DNA from: a virus
Lineage: Duplodnaviria > Caudoviricetes
DNA: 64,000 nt
IMG/VR virus record: IMGVR_UViG_3300044556_000077
Coordinates: 1 to 64,000 of that record
Direction: 5' to 3' (one strand)
In this document: positions 11,664 through 64,000 of the stretch, one piece after another
Numbering within the stretch: position 1 is the stretch's first letter
Layout: each line of letters opens with the position of its first letter
The notes under the pieces: model-generated
Seen by the model: only the letters and a program-made list of their open reading frames with translations
What the model was told of the DNA's origin: nothing
Database searches by the model: none
Translations under genes and position numbers: made by a program

Positions 11664-12851
11664 TTGGTAAATCACACTTATTTAGATTATGGTGCGTCTT
11701 CCCCTATTGGGGAGGACGTTATCAATACTATGGTTGATGTAGCAAAGAATTACTATGGTAATCCATCGTCCAAACATAATGACGGAGTTGAAGCTCATGA
11801 CATTATTGCACATGCTCGTAAGACGATTATGGATTATATTGGTGGAAATGAGGATGATAATCTGATCTTCACTTCAGGAGCTACAGAAAGCAATAGTATT
11901 GCTATTCAGGGATTTTGCAGAGCATATAATAAAGTAAGGATTTTTTACACCCCACTTGAACATGAAGATATTATTCAGGCTGTTAAGTATTGTACGGAAC
12001 ACATGAGTGGTGTAAGTTCTTGTGAGATTCCTGTTGAGGAAGGAACTGGGTACATTGACATTGATGGTTTTGATAATCTGCTGTTCAATGCCAGATTGAA
12101 GCATCCGGGTGAAGTCTTCCTTATTATTATTCAGCTTGCCAATAGTGAAATCGGTACTATTCAGCTGAGTGAGATTTTATACGATGTAATTCGTGAATAT
12201 GATGATGATGATATCTGCATCATGAGTGACATTACGCAGTATCTTCCATATTATAGATTCAAAGCATTTAATCCTGACATGAGAATGTGTATTGATATTG
12301 TCACTGCTTCTGCTCAGAAGTTTGGTGGGCTTAAAGGTACAGGATTCCTTTATGTCAATAGTGGTTGGGATATTGATCCTGTTATCTTCGGTGAACAGGG
12401 AGTGCGTGGCGGTACTGAGAATGTAATTGGTATTACTGCTATGGAGACTGCGATCAAACACCTCGATAAGACAATTGAAGTTAAGCAGAAGAAACTTCTG
12501 TTCATTTATAATTACCTTAAAAAAAAATTGAGTAAGATTGAAGGGGTTGAGATAATTGGAGATCCTTTTGACCGACTTATTAATAATCTTAGTTTTGTAT
12601 GTAATACATGTGATCTTTCAGCGCAACAGATTGTTGAGCTTTGCAATGAGTCAGGGGTATCTATTTCTGCGGGTTCTGCTTGCCACAATTATAGTTCTGA
12701 ACCTTCTAGGACTTTACTTGCAATTGGATTAAGCCCGGAGAAAGCAAATAAGGTCATCCGTGTTACATGGGGTGAATATACAACAATTGATGATATTTGT
12801 ACTTTCTTGGATGTGTACAAGGAAATCCTCGCTATACATTCAAAGAAGTAA
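11664..12851 (+). CDS. iscS: Cysteine desulfurase (IscS/NifS family)
   Basis: YLDYGASSP, NPSSKH, FTSGATESN, PLP lysine in SAQKFGG, catalytic SAGSAC. Confidence 0.9.
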   Translation: MVNHTYLDYGASSPIGEDVINTMVDVAKNYYGNPSSKHNDGVEAHDIIAHARKTIMDYIGGNEDDNLIFTSGATESNSIAIQGFCRAYNKVRIFYTPLEHEDIIQAVKYCTEHMSGVSSCEIPVEEGTGYIDIDGFDNLLFNARLKHPGEVFLIIIQLANSEIGTIQLSEILYDVIREYDDDDICIMSDITQYLPYYRFKAFNPDMRMCIDIVTASAQKFGGLKGTGFLYVNSGWDIDPVIFGEQGVRGGTENVIGITAMETAIKHLDKTIEVKQKKLLFIYNYLKKKLSKIEGVEIIGDPFDRLINNLSFVCNTCDLSAQQIVELCNESGVSISAGSACHNYSSEPSRTLLAIGLSPEKANKVIRVTWGEYTTIDDICTFLDVYKEILAIHSKK

Positions 12852-12866
12852 TTAATGATGAAGTTT

Positions 12867-12896
12867 AAGAGTAGGTTTCGTTCTCTACTCTTTTTT
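12867..12896 (+). terminator. Intrinsic terminator after iscS
   Basis: AAGAGTAG/CTACTCTT stem plus T-tract. Confidence 0.6.
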
Positions 12897-12942
12897 CTTT
12901 ACTTTTGTTTCATTTTTGTACCTCCTAAAAATATAATGAAAC

Positions 12943-13543
12943 GAGAACAAGGATGCTAGAAATGAGAGCATTGTTAACTCAGTGAAGAAGCAATGTTATG
13001 CTGCTGAGATGCATTGTAATCCCAGACTGATACTTACGGATACGTTTGTTGAGGATCTGTGCAGCTATGGTGACATAGTTGCAGAAGGTAGAATTACCAA
13101 CGGTTGGATGCAGTGCTAAACTTCTGGCGATATAAAGGTACGACAAATTGACACCATGTGCAATAGACGCTCTGTGAGAAGAACCTCAAACGACATGAAG
13201 CTGGATACTTAGTGAAACGTGAGGAATTCCAAATAAGCATGGTAATGCATATAAGCGTAGCAGAAATGCCGTGAATAAAGTTCAAGAGTCGGTACGAGTA
13301 GCCTAATGCATGGCATCAAGGTTGAAGCATAGACTTGAAATCTATTGCTGATGATATGTGAATGACAGGTGAAAGTTACAGATGCCAATTCTGTATAAGA
13401 TTTGCCGTTTAACGGTGGGTATAATAGCTGCAGCTGACGGGTTGTATGCTCACATTATATTCCTTATTGACTGAATATATAAGAAGGATGTTTGAGTAAG
13501 ATGAAGGTCTAACAGTGCTTTGATTTCTGGTATCCTTGTTCTT
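12943..13543 (+). ncRNA. Large structured ncRNA (~600 nt), ROOL-like
   Basis: No ORF; 5' GAGAACAAGGATGCTAGAAAT pairs with 3' ATTTCTGGTATCCTTGTTCTT, then AGCATTGTTA pairs with TAACAGTGCT; internal hairpins; size and tRNA-adjacent phage context match ROOL; TATAAT at 12932-12937 just upstream. Confidence 0.7.
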
Positions 13544-13546
13544 TGT

Positions 13547-13621
13547 AGGTTTGTAGTTCAATTGGCAGAATGCCAGTTGTGAGAGCAACGGTAGATGCAA
13601 GTTCAAATCTTGCCGAACCTA
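13547..13621 (+). ncRNA. tRNA-like element lacking a canonical anticodon loop
   Basis: Acceptor AGGTTTG/CGAACCT, D arm GTTC-AATTGGCA-GAAT, T arm GCAAG-TTCAAAT-CTTGC; the anticodon arm is an extended stem capped by GAGA. Confidence 0.7.
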
Positions 13622-13688
13622 TTTTATGCGGGTTTCACTCCTACTATGAGTAAACACGCAAATACATTAAGAAAGGAATGAAACCTAT

Positions 13689-13877
13689 TTGTTCAAAATT
13701 AGTAAACTTGAAAGAGATTTTTTAGAAAGCAATGGATGTAAGTTCCCTTATGAGCTTCATAAGACACTTGGAACATCCAAGCATTGTACATATTATGCTT
13801 CTGAGACAAACAGAGTGCTTGATTTACTTAAGGAATACAAGGATAAACATGTTACTGAACGTCATGTTAACAAGTAG
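13689..13877 (+). CDS. Small hypothetical protein
   Basis: 62-aa ORF with GAAAGGA upstream, in operon orientation. Confidence 0.6.
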   Translation: MFKISKLERDFLESNGCKFPYELHKTLGTSKHCTYYASETNRVLDLLKEYKDKHVTERHVNK

Positions 13878-13911: not shown

Positions 13912-15372
13912 GTGGTGATCAATATTTCATCTAAGAAGCATAAGGGCGAGAAGATCCGTGTTAGATGCGTAGGTATGTCATCTAGTGAAGTCACCGGATC
14001 TGGCTATTTAGTTGAGTGCCCTACTGGTGAACAGATTCTGCTAGATTGTGGATTATACCAATCAGGAAATGTTTACCAGTCGTATAAAATCAACAAAAGA
14101 AAGTTTGACTTTAAACCTAGAGATATTACAGCTGCTTTAATTTCACATATCAATGCAGACCATTACTGCTTACTTCCTAAGTTTGTTGCCGAAGGTGGAA
14201 ATTGTAACATCTATATATCTGAAGAGACATTAGATTTTACTAAGCCGATGCTTGAAGATTCTGCCAGAATTATGGAAAGAGATGCAGAGATGCTTTCAAG
14301 AAGGTATGGTAAAGATTTATCTCCTGTATATAGAATTGAAGATGTACAGCGCACTGAATTGCTATTCAGAGGATGTGCTAAAGATCAGATGCATAAGATT
14401 TCAGAGAACGTAAGCTTTAGATTTGTGTCTGCTGGTCATATATTCGGATCATGTCAAATTGAATTGTATATCACACTTCCGACAGGTATAGTAAAAAAGA
14501 TCTGCTATTCTGGGGATATTGGCAACTCAATGTTTGAGCATCCTTTTATTGATGATTATGAGCCTACAGTGAAATGCAATATGTTCATTGGCGAGACTAC
14601 ATATAATAATCCAAAGCGTTCTGCTAAAAAGAATCAGCGCAAGAAGGATCTTGAGACTATTGAAGAGACAATCCGAGAAACATGTTTTGACAATAAAGGT
14701 ATAGTTTTGATACCTACATTTGCTTTGCAGAGAACTGAAACGATGTTGTACGCTCTTTGGAAGATCTTTGGTGACGATCCAGAGTTTGATATTCCTGTTG
14801 TTGTAGACTCCCCTCTTGCAGTAAAACTGTTAGACTGCTTCAAAGACAATCTTACAGGTTACTGGAAAGAAGAGTTTGATGCCATGATGAAATGGAAGAA
14901 TATCAAGGTAATCAAGGACTATGATACCAGTATGGCTTGCATGATGGATACAAGCCCAAAGGTGGTATGTTCCTCTTCAGGTATGCTTACTCAGGGAAGA
15001 TCGATTCAGTATTTAAAGAGGATTCTTCCTCGGAAGAATTGTTGCATTCTGACTTGTGGATACATGGTTGAAGATAGTCTTGGATGGAAGATTAAGAACA
15101 GGTCTGCTCAGAAGACAATTACTATAGATAAGAAACCATGTAAAAACAGATGTAAGGTTAAGAGTCTGGAAAGCTTTTCATGCCATGCTCAATATCAACA
15201 GTTAATGAATACATATGTTGATGTTGCTGACCGTGGATGTGAAGTAATCTGGCTTGTTCATGGAGATAAAGGGAAAATTGATTTTAAGAAAGCGTTAGAA
15301 AGACGCATTGCTAAAATCTGTAAAACAACAAAAGTAGTAGCTACTAACAAAGATACGGTAGCACATATTTAA
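13912..15372 (+). CDS. Metallo-beta-lactamase / beta-CASP ribonuclease (YSH1/CPSF73-like)
   Basis: LDCG, SHINADH, AGHIFGS, YSGDIG, ETTY, SSGML, FSCHA, LVHG motifs. Confidence 0.9.
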   Translation: MVINISSKKHKGEKIRVRCVGMSSSEVTGSGYLVECPTGEQILLDCGLYQSGNVYQSYKINKRKFDFKPRDITAALISHINADHYCLLPKFVAEGGNCNIYISEETLDFTKPMLEDSARIMERDAEMLSRRYGKDLSPVYRIEDVQRTELLFRGCAKDQMHKISENVSFRFVSAGHIFGSCQIELYITLPTGIVKKICYSGDIGNSMFEHPFIDDYEPTVKCNMFIGETTYNNPKRSAKKNQRKKDLETIEETIRETCFDNKGIVLIPTFALQRTETMLYALWKIFGDDPEFDIPVVVDSPLAVKLLDCFKDNLTGYWKEEFDAMMKWKNIKVIKDYDTSMACMMDTSPKVVCSSSGMLTQGRSIQYLKRILPRKNCCILTCGYMVEDSLGWKIKNRSAQKTITIDKKPCKNRCKVKSLESFSCHAQYQQLMNTYVDVADRGCEVIWLVHGDKGKIDFKKALERRIAKICKTTKVVATNKDTVAHI

Positions 15373-15430: not shown

Positions 15431-16898
15431 AGACAATAATATTGATATTGGTGATTAAATGTGTTTAAAGATGCTCATAGTACATGCCTAAATTGAGAAG
15501 GCTTTTTAGGGTTTTTCCTCATATTTTAGACGATGCCCAAGCGGAGAGAAGGTGAGAATGATGCTGAAAAGCTTCAAGACAGAAATTGATCCAACACTAG
15601 AGCAAAAAATCAAGATCAACAAAACTATTGGCACATGCAGATATATCTACAATTTCTACATTGCCCATAATAAAGCTTTGCATGATCAAGGCGAAGCATT
15701 TATGAGTGGCAAATCATTTAGTGTCTGGCTTAACAATGAGTATATACCTAACCATTCAGACAAAGCATGGATTAAAGAAGCTTATTCTAAAGCTGTCAAG
15801 AAATCCATTGAAAATGGGTGTACTGCTTTTACAAGATTTTTTAAACATCAGAGTGGTTTTCCAAAATTCAAGAAGAAGGGAAAATCTGATGTAAAGATGT
15901 ATTTTGTGAAGAATAACCCCAAAGATTGCATCTGCAAAAGACACTGTATCAAGATTCCTTCTCTTGGATGGGTAAAGCTAAAAGAAAAAGGCTATATACC
16001 AACAACCAAGGATGGATTCACTATTAAGAGTGGTACGGTGTCTATGAAGGCAGACAGATATTATGTTTCAGCTCTTGTAGAGCTGCCTGATCCACATCCA
16101 TCAAAATGCAGTGGCGAGGGTATTGGAATAGACTTAGGGCTAAAGGATTTTGCTATTGTTTCAAATGGCAAGACTTATAAAAATATCAATAAGTCAGCAA
16201 GAATTAAAAAATTAGAAAAGAAACTGCGTAGGGAACAAAGATGTCTCTCACGCAAGTATGAAAATTTAAAGAAAGGAGAGTCTACTCGAAAGAATATACA
16301 GAAGCAAAAGCTGATGGTGCAGAAGCTTTATCATAGGATAGATAATATCCGTACTGATTACATTAACAAGACAATCACTGAGATAGTAAAAACCAAGCCG
16401 TCTTATATAACGATTGAGGATTTAAATGTATCAGGTATGATGAATAACAGGCATCTCTCAAAAGCTATTGCATCACAAAAGTTTTATGAGTTCAGAATTA
16501 AGCTTAAAAATAAATGTGATGAAAATGGCATTGAATTAAGGGTTGTGGACAGATGGTATCCATCATCAAAACTGTGTCACTGTTGTGGAGCTATTAAGAA
16601 AGATTTAAAACTTTCAGACAGGGTTTACAGATGTGCCTGTGGATACATAGCAGACAGAGACTATAATGCAAGTCTTAATTTAAGAGACGCAAAAACTTAC
16701 AAAATTGCATAAGTAAGCAAGTGTAAGTGTGTACCAATGGCTAGTTGGGAATTAACGACTGTGGAGTGTACAAGAACTTGTGAGTAGTAGGTCACTTATG
16801 ACTACAAAAGCATACACTGTGAAGCAGTAAGTGGTGTTTGCGAAAACCCACAACATCTCAATGTGCTTGAGTATATTTGAACATATTTTGAGTAGCAG
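15431..16898 (+). mobile_element. Non-autonomous TnpB-only IS (IS607/IS200-IS605 group); left end approximate
   Basis: tnpB followed by ~190 nt omegaRNA-like right end ending ...TTTTGAGTAGCAG; no transposase ORF. Confidence 0.7.
15552..16712 (+). CDS. tnpB: RNA-guided endonuclease TnpB
   Basis: RuvC GIDLG, IEDL, DRDYNA; zinc finger CHCCG..CACG; N-terminal HTH KSFKTEIDPT. Confidence 0.93.
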   Translation: MRMMLKSFKTEIDPTLEQKIKINKTIGTCRYIYNFYIAHNKALHDQGEAFMSGKSFSVWLNNEYIPNHSDKAWIKEAYSKAVKKSIENGCTAFTRFFKHQSGFPKFKKKGKSDVKMYFVKNNPKDCICKRHCIKIPSLGWVKLKEKGYIPTTKDGFTIKSGTVSMKADRYYVSALVELPDPHPSKCSGEGIGIDLGLKDFAIVSNGKTYKNINKSARIKKLEKKLRREQRCLSRKYENLKKGESTRKNIQKQKLMVQKLYHRIDNIRTDYINKTITEIVKTKPSYITIEDLNVSGMMNNRHLSKAIASQKFYEFRIKLKNKCDENGIELRVVDRWYPSSKLCHCCGAIKKDLKLSDRVYRCACGYIADRDYNASLNLRDAKTYKIA

Positions 16899-19497: not shown

Positions 19498-21604
19498 ATG
19501 AGCGATTACGAAAAGTATAGAAACAATATTGATTTCATCAAAAGATACTCTAAGGCAATCAACGCATCTTCTGGAAGTGAAGTAGATGCTAATGCTAATG
19601 TAGAGAATAAGAATATTACAACATGCATGGGTGAGATTCCGAAGAGACAGATCATCGGAACTAATAGACTGCTTATGCATGATAAGATTACAGAAATGTA
19701 CGGGGAAGAGCTTGCTGATGAGTATATCAGGCAGCTTGAATCCCATGAGATATATAAACATGATGAAACGTCCATTATGCCTTATTGCGTCAGTATTACT
19801 ATGTATCCTTTTCTCTTTGAAGGACTGAAGAATATTGGTGGTATTTCCACAGCACCAACTAACCTTCAGGCTTTCTTGGGAGCTTTTATTAATCTCGTGT
19901 TTGCTATTGCAAGTCAGTTTGCCGGGGCGGTAGCAACTCCTGAGTTCTTTATGTATATGGATTATTTTATCCGCAAAGAATATGGAGATGATTATTATCT
20001 GCGCTCAGATGAGATTGTATCTCTCGGTAAACATCCAAGAACAATTGATAAAGTAATTACTGACGGATTTGAGCAGGTTGTATATTCAATGAATCAGCCA
20101 GCAGCTGCAAGAAATTTCCAAAGCGTAAACTAAAAATGCGCCTATATTAAGTAATTTATATAGAAAACTCCTTTAATTTCTGGAAACTCTTTCTGAGAAG
20201 AAAGACGATCAGAAGCGAAGCTCTTGATTACAAGAGAACGTTCAACGACTATTGCGAAAGCAAGTACACTATAAGCGTTTGATAGTGGAAATGGGGAGCA
20301 TCCTTTGTAGGATGGTGATATAGTCTGCTCTTCATGGTAACATGAAGCAGTTCATAAGAGAACGCATGTAATGTAGCGAATTACATGGAACATTAGGGTT
20401 TTGGAATGTGGCTTACTTTGATCATCCATACTTTAGCGGTATGTTTGATGGTTTTGTATTCCCAGATGGAAGTGAGCCTAAGTGGGAAAGCTTAAACTGG
20501 CTTCAGAAGAAGTTTATGAAGTGGTTTAACAAGGAAAGACTTAAGACAATTCTTACCTTCCCTGTTGAGACTATGAATCTCCTGAATGATGGGTCTGAAT
20601 ATGTTGACAAAGAATATGAAGATTTCTCCGCTGAGATGTATTCAGAGGGACATTCATTTTTTACATATACAAGTGATTCCGTAGATAGTCTTGCAAGTTG
20701 TTGCAGACTGAAGAATGAGCTTCAGGACAATACTTTCTCTTATACTCTTGGAGCTGGCGGTGTTGCTACAGGTTCTAAGGGAGTTCTTACAATTAATATT
20801 AACAGACTTGTTCAGAATGCAACAAGAAATGGTGTAAATATTTCAGATGCTGTTGCAGAACAGGTTGAGAAATGTCATAAATATCTGCTTGCTTATAATG
20901 CAATTATTACAGATTACTTTAATGCAAGACTTCTGCCTATTTATGACGCAGGATATATTTCTCTTGCAAAGCAGTATTTGACTATTGGTATTAATGGATT
21001 TGTTGAAGGTGCAGAATTCCTTGGAATTAGCATTACTCCGAATGACAGATATTTTGAGTATGGTGAATCTATTCTCAAGCCTATCTATGAACTTAACAAG
21101 GCTGCAAGAACAAAAGATATTATGTTTAACACAGAGTTTGTTCCTGCTGAGAATCTTGGTGTAAAGAATGCCAAGTGGGATAAGGAAGATGGCTATTTTG
21201 TTCCTAGAGATTGCTACAATAGTTACTTCTATCTTGTAGAAGATCCATCAACTAATATTATTGATAAGTTCATTCTTCACGGAAGAAAGCTTACTAAATA
21301 TCTTGATGGCGGTTCTGCTTACCATTGTAATCTTGATGAGCATCTTTCCAAAGAGCAGTATCTAAAACTTGGCAAAGTAGCTATTAAGACTGGATGCACG
21401 TACTGGACATACAATGTCCCAAATACGATTTGTAATGATTGCGGACATATTAGTAAGCATAGACTTGAGAAGTGTCCAAAGTGTGGAAGTGAAAATCTTG
21501 ATTATGCAACTCGTGTAATTGGCTACCTGAAAAGAGTTTCTAAGTTCTCAGCACCTAGAATCAAAGAAGAACATAAGAGGTATTATGGCAGATACAAAGC
21601 GTAG
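19498..21604 (+). CDS. nrdD: Anaerobic ribonucleotide reductase, spliced: join(19498..20126,20398..21604), 611 aa
   Basis: YKHD, PYC; splicing restores ARNFQSV|FWNVAYFD; LASCCRL, VPAE, CNDCG..CPKCG, glycyl-radical RVIGYL. Confidence 0.93.
20127..20397 (+). ncRNA. Group I intron (271 nt, no ORF) in nrdD
   Basis: P1 GCGT/GCGC with U.G; TTCAACGACTA and GATATAGTCT core; terminal G; frame restored. Confidence 0.9.
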
Positions 21605-60300: not shown

Positions 60301-63300
60301 AATGCAGGAATGCTTGCGGGAAATCTTAAAACTGGATTTAAAGAAACAGTTCTTCCGAATCTAATAAAATTTATTAAAAATCCTGTTGGTATTGGAGCAA
60401 TAGCAGCTGCAGTTACTTACGGAGCATTAAGGATTGCAACGTATGCAGCTCATTCAATTAATCGTAAATATGATGGAGCTGCAAAAAAAATAAAAGAATA
60501 CGAACGTGACGAGGATAAAGCACAATTAAATGTAGATAAATTAAAAGCTCAAAGAGCAAGGCACGGTACTCTTAATGCTGCTGACCAATCTACACTTGAA
60601 ATGTACCAAGCTAGAGTTAAATTTGCCAAACAACAGCAAAAGGTTCAAAAGCAGATTCAGGCAAGCAATGTTGAAGGGTCTTTTAAAGTTAAAACAAAAG
60701 GCTCTGGAATGACTTGGGACGATAAAGCTGCTTTCAATGGTATTGCTGGTGTTGGCGGTTCGACTGGATTAGCTGGAATTACAGAAGCATATTCCCAAGT
60801 TGAAAAATATTTACGTGAATATAAAGCAAAAAATAGCAAACTTGGCTTTACAGATTTTATGAAAAGGTCATCCGCACAGATGGAAGCCTTGATGAAGTTT
60901 AGAGATAAAGTTAGACAGTATGACAAGCAAGGATTAAGAGTTTCTAGTCAGGATAAACAACTTGCTAACCAAATTGATACTCTTGCTAATTCTTGGAACA
61001 AAGTTGCCATTGCTCAGTCTAAAGCTAGCTCTGGAATGGCTAAATATAATAATACTATTAATTCTGTAACAAAGAAAATGTCAAGTTGGCAGGATTATAT
61101 TAACTCTGCCCCGGCAGTTCTTGATTCAATGAATAAAGTCATTAAAGGTGCTAATGATAATGGAGCAAGCCTTAAAAGTTTCCAAGATACAATTAAGACT
61201 GTTCTTACAAATTCGGCTGATACAAAGCAAGGTACAGATCAATTCTGGACAGCTGCTGAGACAATGTTTACTAAGAAGCAACTTATTAGAAATGGTTATG
61301 ACTATACCAAGACAAGAGCTATGATGCAGCAAGAGCAGAAGTTCGCTGCTAAATCTGCAAGTGGTGCATATTCCTTCTTACAATATCTGAATCAGAATAA
61401 ATCTGCAATTGGAAAAGCTACTGCAAAATCTAAAGGTGGACAAGTTACTATTACGCAAGATAGCAGTGGAATTCATGTTAGTGGATTAAATACTAAAAAT
61501 ATTGGTGCTGTTGGCAATGCAATTGGATATAGTAAAGATTTGATGAACTTATTTGAAGATAATCTTCAAAGATATGCTCCAATGGCACTTACATATACTA
61601 AGCAAGCATTAGATAAGGTTGCTCCTAAGATTGCGGGTTCAATGGAGAATACCGTATGGAAAGGCTCTAATAAAAAAGCCGACAAGAAATGGTTGAAAGC
61701 AAATGGTAGTAGTAAAAATCCTTATGCTGATACTACTGATCTTTATACTGATTCATTACAATGGTATAAAAAAGGTGGACAACGTAGTTTAGTTAGAAAG
61801 ACATTTAAGGGATTCAACTTTAAAGAACTTGCTGACAATGTAAGTAAAGCCTCTAACAAATATAATGCTAAGAACTTAATTGGATATTCTAAGAGTAGAT
61901 ATGGTGCTACAAATAAAACTGCTCCTGTGTTCTCCGATGCTAAAGCTAAGTCAATGGAACTTAATATTGCTCAATTAGCAAGAGAGGGAAAAGCAAAAGG
62001 ATTAACTAAATCTGAAACAATTCAGGCTATTAGGTCTTTAAAGCAAGGTACTAAAGCTGCTACAGGGAAAGATGTTGGATATTATGGTAAAACAAAAGAA
62101 AATGGTAAAACCGTAACAGATTCTAATCTTTCTGCTAAAGAAATGAAGAGTATCGTTAAAAAGGCTTATGGTGATCCCGATTCTAATAAAAAGAGTAAGG
62201 TTAACATCTCTGCTAAATCCGTCTATGTAAACGGCAAAAAAGTAAAAGACCCTAAAGATGATGACAGTAAGCATCCTAAGAAGCACCCTGATAAAGATAC
62301 AAAAGATACTAAAGATACTAAAAAACATCAAGATAAAAACGGAACTAAGGGTTCTGGAAGTGGCTCTGGCGGGAAAGGCGGTGGTCACGGAAGTCGTGGT
62401 AGTTCAAGTTCAGGTGGCGGTCGAAGCTCTAGTTCTGGTTCTGGTGGTGGTCATGGTGGATCAAGTAGTCGTGGAAGTCATACTAGTTCAAGTTCAAGTA
62501 GCCATGGCAGCCACAGTAGTTCAAGTAGTAATGGTAATGGTCGTGGAAGTAAGAAAAATATTATTTCTAAATCTGCATTGCAGAACAGCTTGAACGGAAC
62601 TTCTACTAGTCATGCTAATGTTGGCAAAGGAATCAATTGGGACAAAGTTGGAAAGAGTATCGAAAGCGCAAATAAAAAAGTTAATAAATGGTTCAAAACT
62701 GGTGACACTAGCAATGGTGGAACAAAAGGCAAGCATATATTAAATCCTTTAGCTCCTATTGATAAACATCCAGAAGTTCATTATAAGGGAAACAAGGTAA
62801 TTCCTAATTATAAAGGAGCTACAAATCAAGATCCAATTTCTAAAGTATTAGGTAAAACCTCTAAAAATGTAAAAAACAGTTTAGCAGATTCATTTGCATC
62901 CTCGGATTTGTGGCGTAAATCAACAATTATAGCTAATTCAGATGCATTTACAGGACTTGGGAAACTCCCATCAGGCGGTGGTCTTTTCCCACATTCAAAT
63001 AAAACTAAAACTGCTAAAAGCATAAAAAACAGTTTAGCAGATTCATTTGCATCTTCTTTTTTATGGCGTCAATCTACAATTGCTAAAAATGCATTATCTA
63101 CATTACCTAGTCGTGGTAAAAATGCATTATCTACATTACCTAGTCGTGGTAAAAATGCATTATCTGCATTGTCTAATTCAGGTAAAAACTTACTTGGAAC
63201 ATTATTCCCAGCATGGAAATCTTCAGCATTTAAAGCTGATAGAGGGGAAAATCTTTTTAGCCGATTAGCAAAAGGGGCGAATATAGCTTTTAGAGGGGGA

Positions 63301-64000
63301 AAATCTGTTCTTGGTAAAATAGGTTCTGGAATTGCCAATGAAACTTCACTGTTTGAAGCAATGAAAGCAGGTACAGCCTCTTCAAAACAAATAAAACAGG
63401 GTTGGCTTCATCAACTAGCTTCAAAAGGGAAAGGTCTATTAGGTAAAGGCAAAGATTGGTTACTTGATGGTTTTTCTATGAGTGCAGTTTATGGTGCAAC
63501 TAAAAAAGGTTCAAGTAAATCGTCAAAAGATAACAAATCAAAAGTAAAAGTTGATGCCGACACAAAGTCATTATCTTCTGCTTTAAGAAAAGTTAAAGCT
63601 AAAATTAAAAGTCTTGGTAAAGGTAAAGCTGGCAAGATAAAGATTAAAGCAGATACAAAAGGTGTAGAATCACCTCTCAAAAAACTTAAATCTACTTTAA
63701 ACAAATTTAAGAAAACAAAGAAAATTAAAGTATCAGCTAATGTAACTGGTAAGAAAAAGATTACATCACTTAAGTCCGCTCTTAAGAGTATTAAATCTAA
63801 GAAAGCGCATATTAAAGTTACTGGTGGCGAAAGTGCATCTAAGCAAGCAAGATCTGTTAAAAGTGCATTAAAAAAGATTCCTGCATCAAAGAAAACTAAA
63901 GTTTCTGCTCCGGGTGCAACACAATCAGCAAAGCAAATTAATGCGCATGTTTCCGCTGCAAAGAAAATTCCACCATCAAAGAAAACTAAAGTATCCGCTC
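54332..64000 (+). CDS. Giant tape measure protein, spliced: join(54332..58798,59158..>64000), >3100 aa, 3'-truncated
   Basis: TP901-type core SGEDAQTAADQI...IDYG|KGIQ...RQDGSEIGNAMKTILTRI; exon 2 in frame at spot checks and at the window end. Confidence 0.85.
58799..59157 (+). ncRNA. Group I intron (359 nt, no ORF) in the tape measure gene
   Basis: Core AAATCGGTGAAG, TAATACCGAG, GTAACGCATA, AAATATATGCTAGACTG shared with terL intron 1; ends ATCG; frame restored. Confidence 0.88.
63085..63183 (+). repeat. 33-bp in-frame tandem repeat (2 exact copies plus 1 degenerate) in the tape measure gene
   Basis: AAAAATGCATTATCTACATTACCTAGTCGTGGT twice (KNALSTLPSRG). Confidence 0.85.

Follow-up and report, generated by a model that had tools for sequence, protein, structure and literature searches.

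A non-decoding, GNRA-closed tRNA-like element downstream of a phage ROOL RNA: a possible handle for RNA processing

The stretch of DNA analysed here (the window) comprises the initial 64 kb of an IMG/VR phage record of 132 kb; the record has a G+C content of 36% and an estimated completeness of 72%. The window encodes a ROOL RNA that has as its sole tRNA neighbour a non-decoding but otherwise complete cloverleaf, with an anticodon arm closed by a GNRA tetraloop, and this element has been kept through a swap of the ROOL allele. That combination is new, whereas the location of ROOL beside tRNAs is already known, as are tRNA-like processing modules such as mascRNA, the phage C4 and CI RNAs, and the T4 stable RNAs. 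The favoured reading, to which a probability of roughly 0.5 is given, is that the element no longer decodes but has been kept as a tRNA-shaped processing handle for RNase P and RNase Z, with cleavage by these enzymes being predicted. The features of the locus, in window coordinates, are as follows.

11664-12851, upstream of ROOL: cysteine-desulfurase-like gene, Aminotran_5 (Pfam PF00266)
12867..12892, plus strand: intrinsic terminator of the cysteine-desulfurase-like gene, a 9-bp stem followed by a T run (terminator scan)
12932..12937, plus strand: TATAAT hexamer, read from the sequence, 16 nt 5′ of the ROOL start
12954..13529, plus strand: ROOL RNA, full length (RF03087, 252.1 bits, model positions 1-574)
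13530..13546, plus strand: 17-nt linker, GUAUCCUUGUUCUUUGU, whose last base is U(-1) and adjoins the tRNA-like element
13547..13621, plus strand: tRNA-like element (Rfam tRNA, 46 bits; ARAGORN, tRNA-??? (gaga); folding energies)
13622..13688, plus strand: structured spacer of 67 nt 5′ of the small ORF, fold of -14.3 kcal/mol
13689..13877, plus strand: small ORF of 62 aa, of no known family, kept in all relatives including those without ROOL
13912..15372, plus strand: beta-CASP metallo-beta-lactamase protein with an RNA-specificity domain (Pfam PF10996, PF00753, PF07521)

The body of the element is that of an ordinary tRNA. The Rfam tRNA model (RF00005) spans 13547-13621 end to end, from model position 1 to 71, and scores 46.0 bits where 29 is the gathering score (E 1e-6 across the 64 kb); its alignment passes over the anticodon arm as an insert of 15 nt, where 13 are expected. 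ARAGORN places its call at 13546-13622 and labels it 'tRNA-??? (gaga)', having found no 3-nt anticodon, which is the undetermined or pseudogene outcome that the sequence-only reading had expected of tRNAscan-SE or ARAGORN. The parts of the element, read from the sequence, are these.

13547-13553 / 13614-13620, plus strand: acceptor stem of 7 bp, AGGUUUG/CGAACCU, with one U.G pair
13556-13571, plus strand: D arm, stem GUUC/GAAU and loop AAUUGGCA with A14, G18, G19, and A21
13573-13591, plus strand: closed arm CC-A-GUUGU-GAGA-GCAAC-GG, 19 nt, a 7-bp stem with one bulged A and a GAGA cap
13581..13584, plus strand: GAGA tetraloop in place of the anticodon loop (sequence and closing-pair probabilities)
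13592-13596, plus strand: variable loop UAGAU, 5 nt, with G46
13597-13613, plus strand: T arm, stem GCAAG/CUUGC (including G53-C61) and loop UUCAAAU with U54, U55, C56, and A58
13621, plus strand: discriminator A

Between the arms, U8, A9, and G26 are present, and the elbow and tertiary set of U8, A14, G18, G19, A21, G53-C61, U54, U55, C56, and A58 is complete. All L-shape positions are canonical and the anticodon arm is the sole abnormality; the acceptor, D, and T arms, described beforehand as intact, are confirmed as such by the sequence, the 46-bit Rfam match, and ARAGORN. The discriminator A is followed by UUUUAU, and the element therefore has no encoded CCA. By similarity, which is weak, the body is nearest to phage tRNA-Trp and tRNA-Gln. 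The 19-mer of the D arm is generic—most of its occurrences are in phage tRNA-Trp(CCA), the others being in Thr, Asp, Asn, Gln, and Lys tRNAs—and no homologue with an odd anticodon arm was reached through a search with it. An attachment-site reading was rejected: the window holds the whole cloverleaf and not just a 3′ fragment, and there is no integrase among the neighbours scanned.

The abnormal arm had previously been read as CC-A-GTTGT-GAGA-GCAAC-GG, a lengthened stem under a GNRA cap; the sequence is identical and the closed form is the one favoured by folding. With the GAGA tetraloop closed, the cloverleaf has an energy of -18.3 kcal/mol, against -13.2 kcal/mol with an open 8-nt loop (a gap of 5.1 kcal/mol), and the pairs that close the tetraloop have probabilities of 0.999 (G-C) and 0.967 (U.G). 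The layout of a standard tRNA, a 5-bp anticodon stem with an open 7-nt loop holding a 3-nt anticodon, is absent from the element. An alternative drawing by ARAGORN, consisting of a 5-bp stem and the 8-nt loop GU-GAGA-GC, exists formally.

The RNA upstream of the element is a true ROOL, matched by RF03087 over its full length with 252.1 bits against a gathering score of 99.1. Because Rfam sets the ROOL boundary at 13529, the gap to the element is 17 nt and not 3; the earlier statement that the element abuts the large RNA thus holds as regards its position directly downstream, but not as regards the distance. No terminator-like site was found by the terminator scan from ROOL to the element, nor in the 380 nt past the element, and the tRNA-like element is the only recognisable 3′-end signal for ROOL in the window phage. 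On the other side of ROOL, the terminator at 12867..12892 sets the cysteine-desulfurase-like gene apart from the ROOL unit, and the TATAAT at 12932..12937 is a possible candidate for the -10 element of a ROOL promoter. The promoter scan makes no call at this hexamer because no -35 element is present there; a -10 role is therefore something that we infer. The four RNA libraries compared with the region consist of assembled contigs, in which read ends are not visible. One assembled contig of 8.4 kb from an RNA library spans the whole ROOL/element region, although this may be DNA carry-over, and three metatranscriptome contigs cover just 13003-13237, inside ROOL.

Downstream of the element, the spacer at 13622-13688 contains an 8-bp helix, GGGUUUCA/UGAAACCU, that stops just short of the start of the small ORF, and five of the six substitutions among relatives in this spacer cluster in one hairpin loop. 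The beta-CASP gene that follows the small ORF is on the same strand as ROOL, with no terminator ahead of it according to the terminator scan; any functional link between its product and the ROOL/element RNA is hypothetical. Homologues about 70% identical occur in ordinary bacterial chromosomal contexts (L122 and L123), and this beta-CASP/RMMBL nuclease-like gene of the phage was therefore probably captured from a host. The gene is absent in the more distant relative L158, and its relatives give a weak Pfam signal for the anti-Pycsar protein Apyc1. Further downstream on the same strand lie a TnpB gene with a RAGATH-18 RNA and then a ClpP-like protease gene. The TnpB (OrfB_IS605, with a Cas12f-like TNB domain) and its RAGATH-18 RNA occupy 15552-16830, between the beta-CASP and ClpP-like genes, and their insertion is missing from L121, L198, L199, and L202 and is therefore recent. 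The window also contains a group I intron at 20117-20347 (RF00028, 89.9 bits). Only three other tRNA genes are found in the genome by ARAGORN, Leu-UAA, Gln-UUG, and Phe-GAA, and these are dispersed. The host would be a Clostridia-type Firmicute, since the nearest named homologue of the beta-CASP protein is from Anaerocolumna and there are SPbeta-type Pfam hits.

Eight close contigs, from eight different sequencing/assembly accessions, allow the locus to be compared; five of these were found via the identical 62-aa ORF and three via members of the beta-CASP cluster. ROOL, the 17-nt linker, and the tRNA-like element are present in all eight. Linker length is the same in all nine contigs, and the only base changes in it are two in L128. 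Five of the eight close contigs have an identical element; the single changes recorded are C61>U in L129, C27>U in L198 and L199, and C56>U in L202, and each of these substitutions makes a G.U pair from a secondary or tertiary G-C pair. In L198 and L199, the most divergent contigs, the linker and element differ at 1 of 92 positions, against 176 of 2649 (6.6%) in the flanking genes and 6 of 67 (9%) in the spacer at 13622-13688; six changes in the spacer are likewise seen in L131 and L202. At the coding rate, one change in 92 has a binomial probability of around 0.014 for L198/L199, which is modest evidence of purifying selection on the linker and element from a sample that is shallow and was partly chosen for local identity. 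All close contigs have the same GAGA loop, where few changes are expected at such divergence, and its conservation is only weakly informative because the relatives with a GAGA arm are almost identical. The sequence-only reading had taken the GNRA cap to be under selection. This is not established, as the GAGA is the same in all near-identical contigs, but only in those, and the arm is missing in the next lineage (L126).

Comparison of the window with L129, L131, L198, and L202 reveals two ROOL alleles that are 72%–74% identical along the whole RNA, on phage backbones that are 95%–99% identical. Both alleles are full length by Rfam, with scores of 227–252 bits overall and 227–251 bits for the second allele. 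The promoter region, the last dozen bases of ROOL, the linker, and the element are 98%–100% identical across the allele classes, and the boundaries of the exchange fall at the outer ROOL helix. Divergent ROOL alleles between near-identical flanks would therefore mean that ROOL was swapped as a precise cassette while the element stayed; more broadly, the two alleles suggest either cassette exchange or fast, structure-preserving evolution. Since two alleles of about 73% identity share a nearly invariant element, the element appears to have outlasted the exchange.

In more distant relatives, smaller tRNA-derived pieces stand at the same site. The beta-CASP protein of L126 is 79% identical and the contig begins inside ROOL; its last 48 bases of ROOL plus linker (L126:1-48) are identical to those of L128, and divergence starts exactly at the element. 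This comparison suggests that ROOL moved horizontally from one lineage to another, the breakpoint lying where ROOL meets the tRNA. At the site of the element, L126 has a 57-nt piece made up of an 8-bp acceptor helix, a 16-nt spacer with AAUUGG, a 6-bp T stem, and a UUCAAUU loop; the piece has no D stem, no anticodon arm, and no Rfam tRNA call. L121 and L157 (beta-CASP protein 79%) carry a T arm and 3′ acceptor strand, GCAGG-UUCGACU-CCUGC-AAGAGUC-A, ahead of the small ORF, and have neither ROOL nor a tRNA call. With a T arm kept in the absence of ROOL, the tRNA-derived piece is therefore not strictly tied to ROOL. In L121, a GGCUCUU complement of 7–8 bp located 84 nt 5′ of the T arm was considered as the other acceptor strand but was not counted as conserved, because, once a tRNA 3′ fragment is present, a chance match within 140 nt has a likelihood of roughly 1%–4% or more, and because the flank is not alignable. 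L158, with an aminotransferase only 40% identical, passes directly from the aminotransferase to the small ORF, with no tRNA piece.

The T stems of the three lineages that hold a piece differ by compensated changes (GCAAG/CUUGC, ACAGG/CCUGU, and GCAGG/CCUGC), and the elements of all three end in A followed by UU. The pieces of these distant relatives therefore indicate that the acceptor/T-arm half has been retained, but not the anticodon arm. The L126 and L121 pieces can be aligned only weakly to the window element, and because homology past the T arm is weak, they may have been derived independently from different tRNAs.

ROOL loci elsewhere provide the wider context. A three-part ROOL pattern retrieved 24 IMG/VR loci, 14 of which were scored with Rfam, and in all 14 ROOL lies within co-oriented tRNA arrays. 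In 7 of the 14, the first 8–9 positions of the ROOL model overlap a tRNA 3′ end; the next tRNA begins 11, 13, 19, 39, 45, and 45 nt past ROOL in six loci, and 11 loci have one within 190 nt. All of these tRNA neighbours have normal anticodons. Among 151 sampled Lachnospiraceae genomes, ROOL is present in two, one of which repeats the tRNA-array layout, while the second has no tRNA within 1.5 kb and instead has a hairpin and T run directly 3′ of ROOL. Array ROOLs compared with this stand-alone ROOL therefore indicate two sources of a 3′ end: ROOL seems to take its end from a terminator in some loci and from the following tRNA in others. In L. salivarius, ROOL is a discrete RNA with RACE-mapped ends (PMC5643018). 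As side observations, L143 (IMGVR_UViG_3300032038_000517, positions 972-2417) holds a phage tRNA array with both GOLLD (RF02032, 173 bits) and ROOL (328 bits), around 390 nt apart on the same strand and with a tRNA match between them. Some tRNA genes of ROOL-linked arrays are themselves odd: one at L133:5831-5904 has a 6-nt anticodon loop, and those at L138:878-960, L138:1060-1140, and L139:5340-5458 have anticodon-arm inserts of 10, 11, and 42 nt. None of these has a closed GNRA-capped arm, however, and none is the sole neighbour of ROOL.

Several further searches yielded nothing or noise: a similarity search of a phage collection with the 801-nt region, exact IMG/VR patterns for the anticodon arm, the ROOL 3′ end, and the subfamily ROOL motif, an IMG/VR protein-pattern search for beta-CASP relatives, and a single-sequence nhmmer search with ROOL. 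The 15-nt ROOL motif AACNCAGTGAAGAAG gave mostly chance matches, and a single metagenome match (L127) was rejected as another. A scan for acceptor/T-arm combinations picked out one minihelix-like site on the minus strand of the window at 63247-63347 (~63347), GAAGUUU followed after 101 nt by UCAGC-UUUAAAU-GCUGA-AGAUUUC, which is probably a chance match (0.15 expected per strand).

Known systems resemble this arrangement in part. ROOL and GOLLD are located in or near tRNA arrays, including those of phages and prophages (Weinberg 2017, PMC5737381; Kretsch 2025, PMC12286853; PMC12990946), and the window shares with these a full-length ROOL near a same-strand, tRNA-shaped gene. In contrast to such loci, the window has no array and no upstream tRNA, and the single neighbour is non-decoding. 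In placement, the element resembles the mascRNA type. In MALAT1/mascRNA and NEAT1/menRNA (RF01684), a tRNA-like fold with a degenerate anticodon arm lies directly 3′ of a long noncoding RNA, and these vertebrate, nuclear modules have been proposed to give the long RNA its 3′ end by directing RNase P cleavage. The window shares with them a position directly downstream of a long noncoding RNA on the same strand (here after 17 nt) with no other 3′-end signal. There is, however, no sequence relation: RF01684 has no match at E≤1 in 12800-13800, the tRNA model is the only Rfam match by the element, and ROOL has no triple-helix end. The analogy to MALAT1/mascRNA that had been drawn from the sequence therefore stands for placement and for the missing terminator, as a functional likeness rather than as membership of RF01684.

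Some phage RNAs exploit host tRNA-processing enzymes. The C4 RNAs of P1 and P7, the CI RNA of P4, and the species 1 and 2 RNAs of T4 are matured by host RNase P and tRNA enzymes via mimicry of the acceptor/T-arm; there, the mimic belongs to the functional RNA itself, whereas here a separate, complete cloverleaf follows the RNA. Replacement of the anticodon arm by another helix, with the acceptor stem, T arm, and elbow kept, is shared with tmRNA and YrlA, the bacterial Y-RNA. The tRNA-like domain of tmRNA is aminoacylated and that of YrlA is bound by Ro60, both domains being embedded in larger RNAs. Models for tmRNA and Y-RNA have no match at the element, and Pfam identifies no Ro or SmpB gene nearby.

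As a processing handle, the element would have as its ancestor an ordinary phage tRNA that lost its decoding loop and was kept for the end-processing enzymes, to which it would present a 12-bp acceptor/T-arm stack, a D-loop/T-loop elbow, a U at -1, and a CCA-less 3′ side. It is the acceptor/T-arm stack and elbow that bacterial RNase P and RNase Z recognise, and in Firmicutes, RNase Z acts on tRNA precursors that lack CCA. A single transcript would run through ROOL, the 17-nt linker, and the element, and probably on into the downstream ORFs. RNase P would cut this at 13546/13547 to release ROOL with a short tail, which exonucleases would then trim back to the closing helix, and RNase Z or a similar enzyme would cut after A13621, thereby freeing the element from the downstream message. 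It is from the anatomy, genomic pattern, and conservation seen at the locus that we infer co-transcription and both cleavages. The sequence-only reading had proposed either an RNase P signal marking the 3′ terminus of ROOL or a decoy for anticodon nucleases; the former fits all of the comparative evidence, whereas the latter is unsupported and fits poorly because the element is without the anticodon loop that such nucleases recognise. Several points weigh against the processing handle. The D arm and the stable closed arm are not needed for it, so their retention is unexplained, and L121 and L157 hold a T arm and acceptor strand, yet no ROOL. The near-identity of the contigs with a GAGA arm and the weak alignment of the L126 and L121 pieces to the window element count against it too.

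The element could alternatively be a functionless relic of a tRNA from an array, one that came with or beside the ROOL cassette and whose anticodon loop was lost through two 1-nt insertions, with further decay still to come. The odd tRNAs of other ROOL arrays (L133, L138, and L139) would suit this explanation, as would the successively smaller tRNA pieces among relatives at the site, ending with none in L158, and the low divergence of the contigs that keep the element. It is nonetheless unlikely, for no stem or tertiary position is damaged and all three substitutions still pair as G.U; moreover, the element changes more slowly than the flanking coding DNA and adjacent spacer, it survived the ROOL allele exchange, and the T stems of three lineages have undergone compensated changes. 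Retention of the full elbow and D arm, although a minihelix suffices for RNase P, hints that the whole shape matters, and a closed GNRA arm would give a stable RNA unusable by the ribosome. Both features would be expected of a trans-acting tRNA mimic, in which the freed L-shaped RNA acts as a sponge or decoy for a host or defence protein, the candidate targets being a tRNA-modifying enzyme, the CCA-adding enzyme, an acceptor-end toxin, or a T-box leader. Such a mimic is, however, quite unlikely: any partner is hypothetical, anticodon nucleases require the loop that is absent here, L126 does without the D and anticodon arms, and the collection searches did not find the element in other phages.

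Two further explanations carry still less weight. The element might work together with the ROOL nanocage, to which the 17-nt linker would tether it or the GAGA would dock it, such that an octamer displays or encloses up to eight tRNA-shaped handles and recruits or traps host tRNA-binding machinery. GNRA loops are classic docking modules, and GAGA is one such loop; the length of the linker is also constant across the two ROOL alleles. For the cage of GOLLD, covalently linked tRNAs have been proposed as cargo (PMC12286853). This role is nevertheless highly improbable, as any receptor is hypothetical, L126 has ROOL but no GNRA arm, and the normal tRNAs of other loci stand at variable distances of 11–189 nt from ROOL; were it true, the linkage of ROOL and GOLLD to tRNAs would be a shape-based interaction and not a supply of tRNAs for translation. 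Finally, the element could be a decoding tRNA with an 8-nt loop and the anticodon GAGA, reading UCUC with a +1 frameshift. The ARAGORN layout does have U33 and purine 37 around the four-base anticodon, but the loop closes by a Watson–Crick G32-C38 pair and a U.G pair, with the gain of 5.1 kcal/mol given above, and TCTC occurs at 1 of 205 +1-register junctions of long frames in the genome, where 0.8 are expected by chance. The body also fits none of the anticodon-independent synthetases, which are those for Leu, Ser, and Ala. In A1-U72, G3-C70, A73, and the short variable loop, no identity set for these enzymes was recognised, a short variable loop being unfit for Leu and Ser tRNAs and G3-C70 unfit for Ala identity. 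A +1 frameshift-suppressor tRNA was accordingly rejected on loop energetics and the TCTC junction count, and scarcely any likelihood is left to it.

The processing handle remains the favoured reading, and the locus bears on a wider question. ROOL and GOLLD are large RNA-only cages for which the one constant genomic clue is their tRNA neighbours. The window phage is a natural separation-of-function case, in which decoding has been lost while the L-shape and exact spacing have been kept despite the ROOL swap. This argues that the linkage between ROOL and tRNAs concerns RNA processing or tRNA shape rather than codon supply. If the processing reading is right, the locus would be a bacterial-virus counterpart of the MALAT1/mascRNA arrangement.
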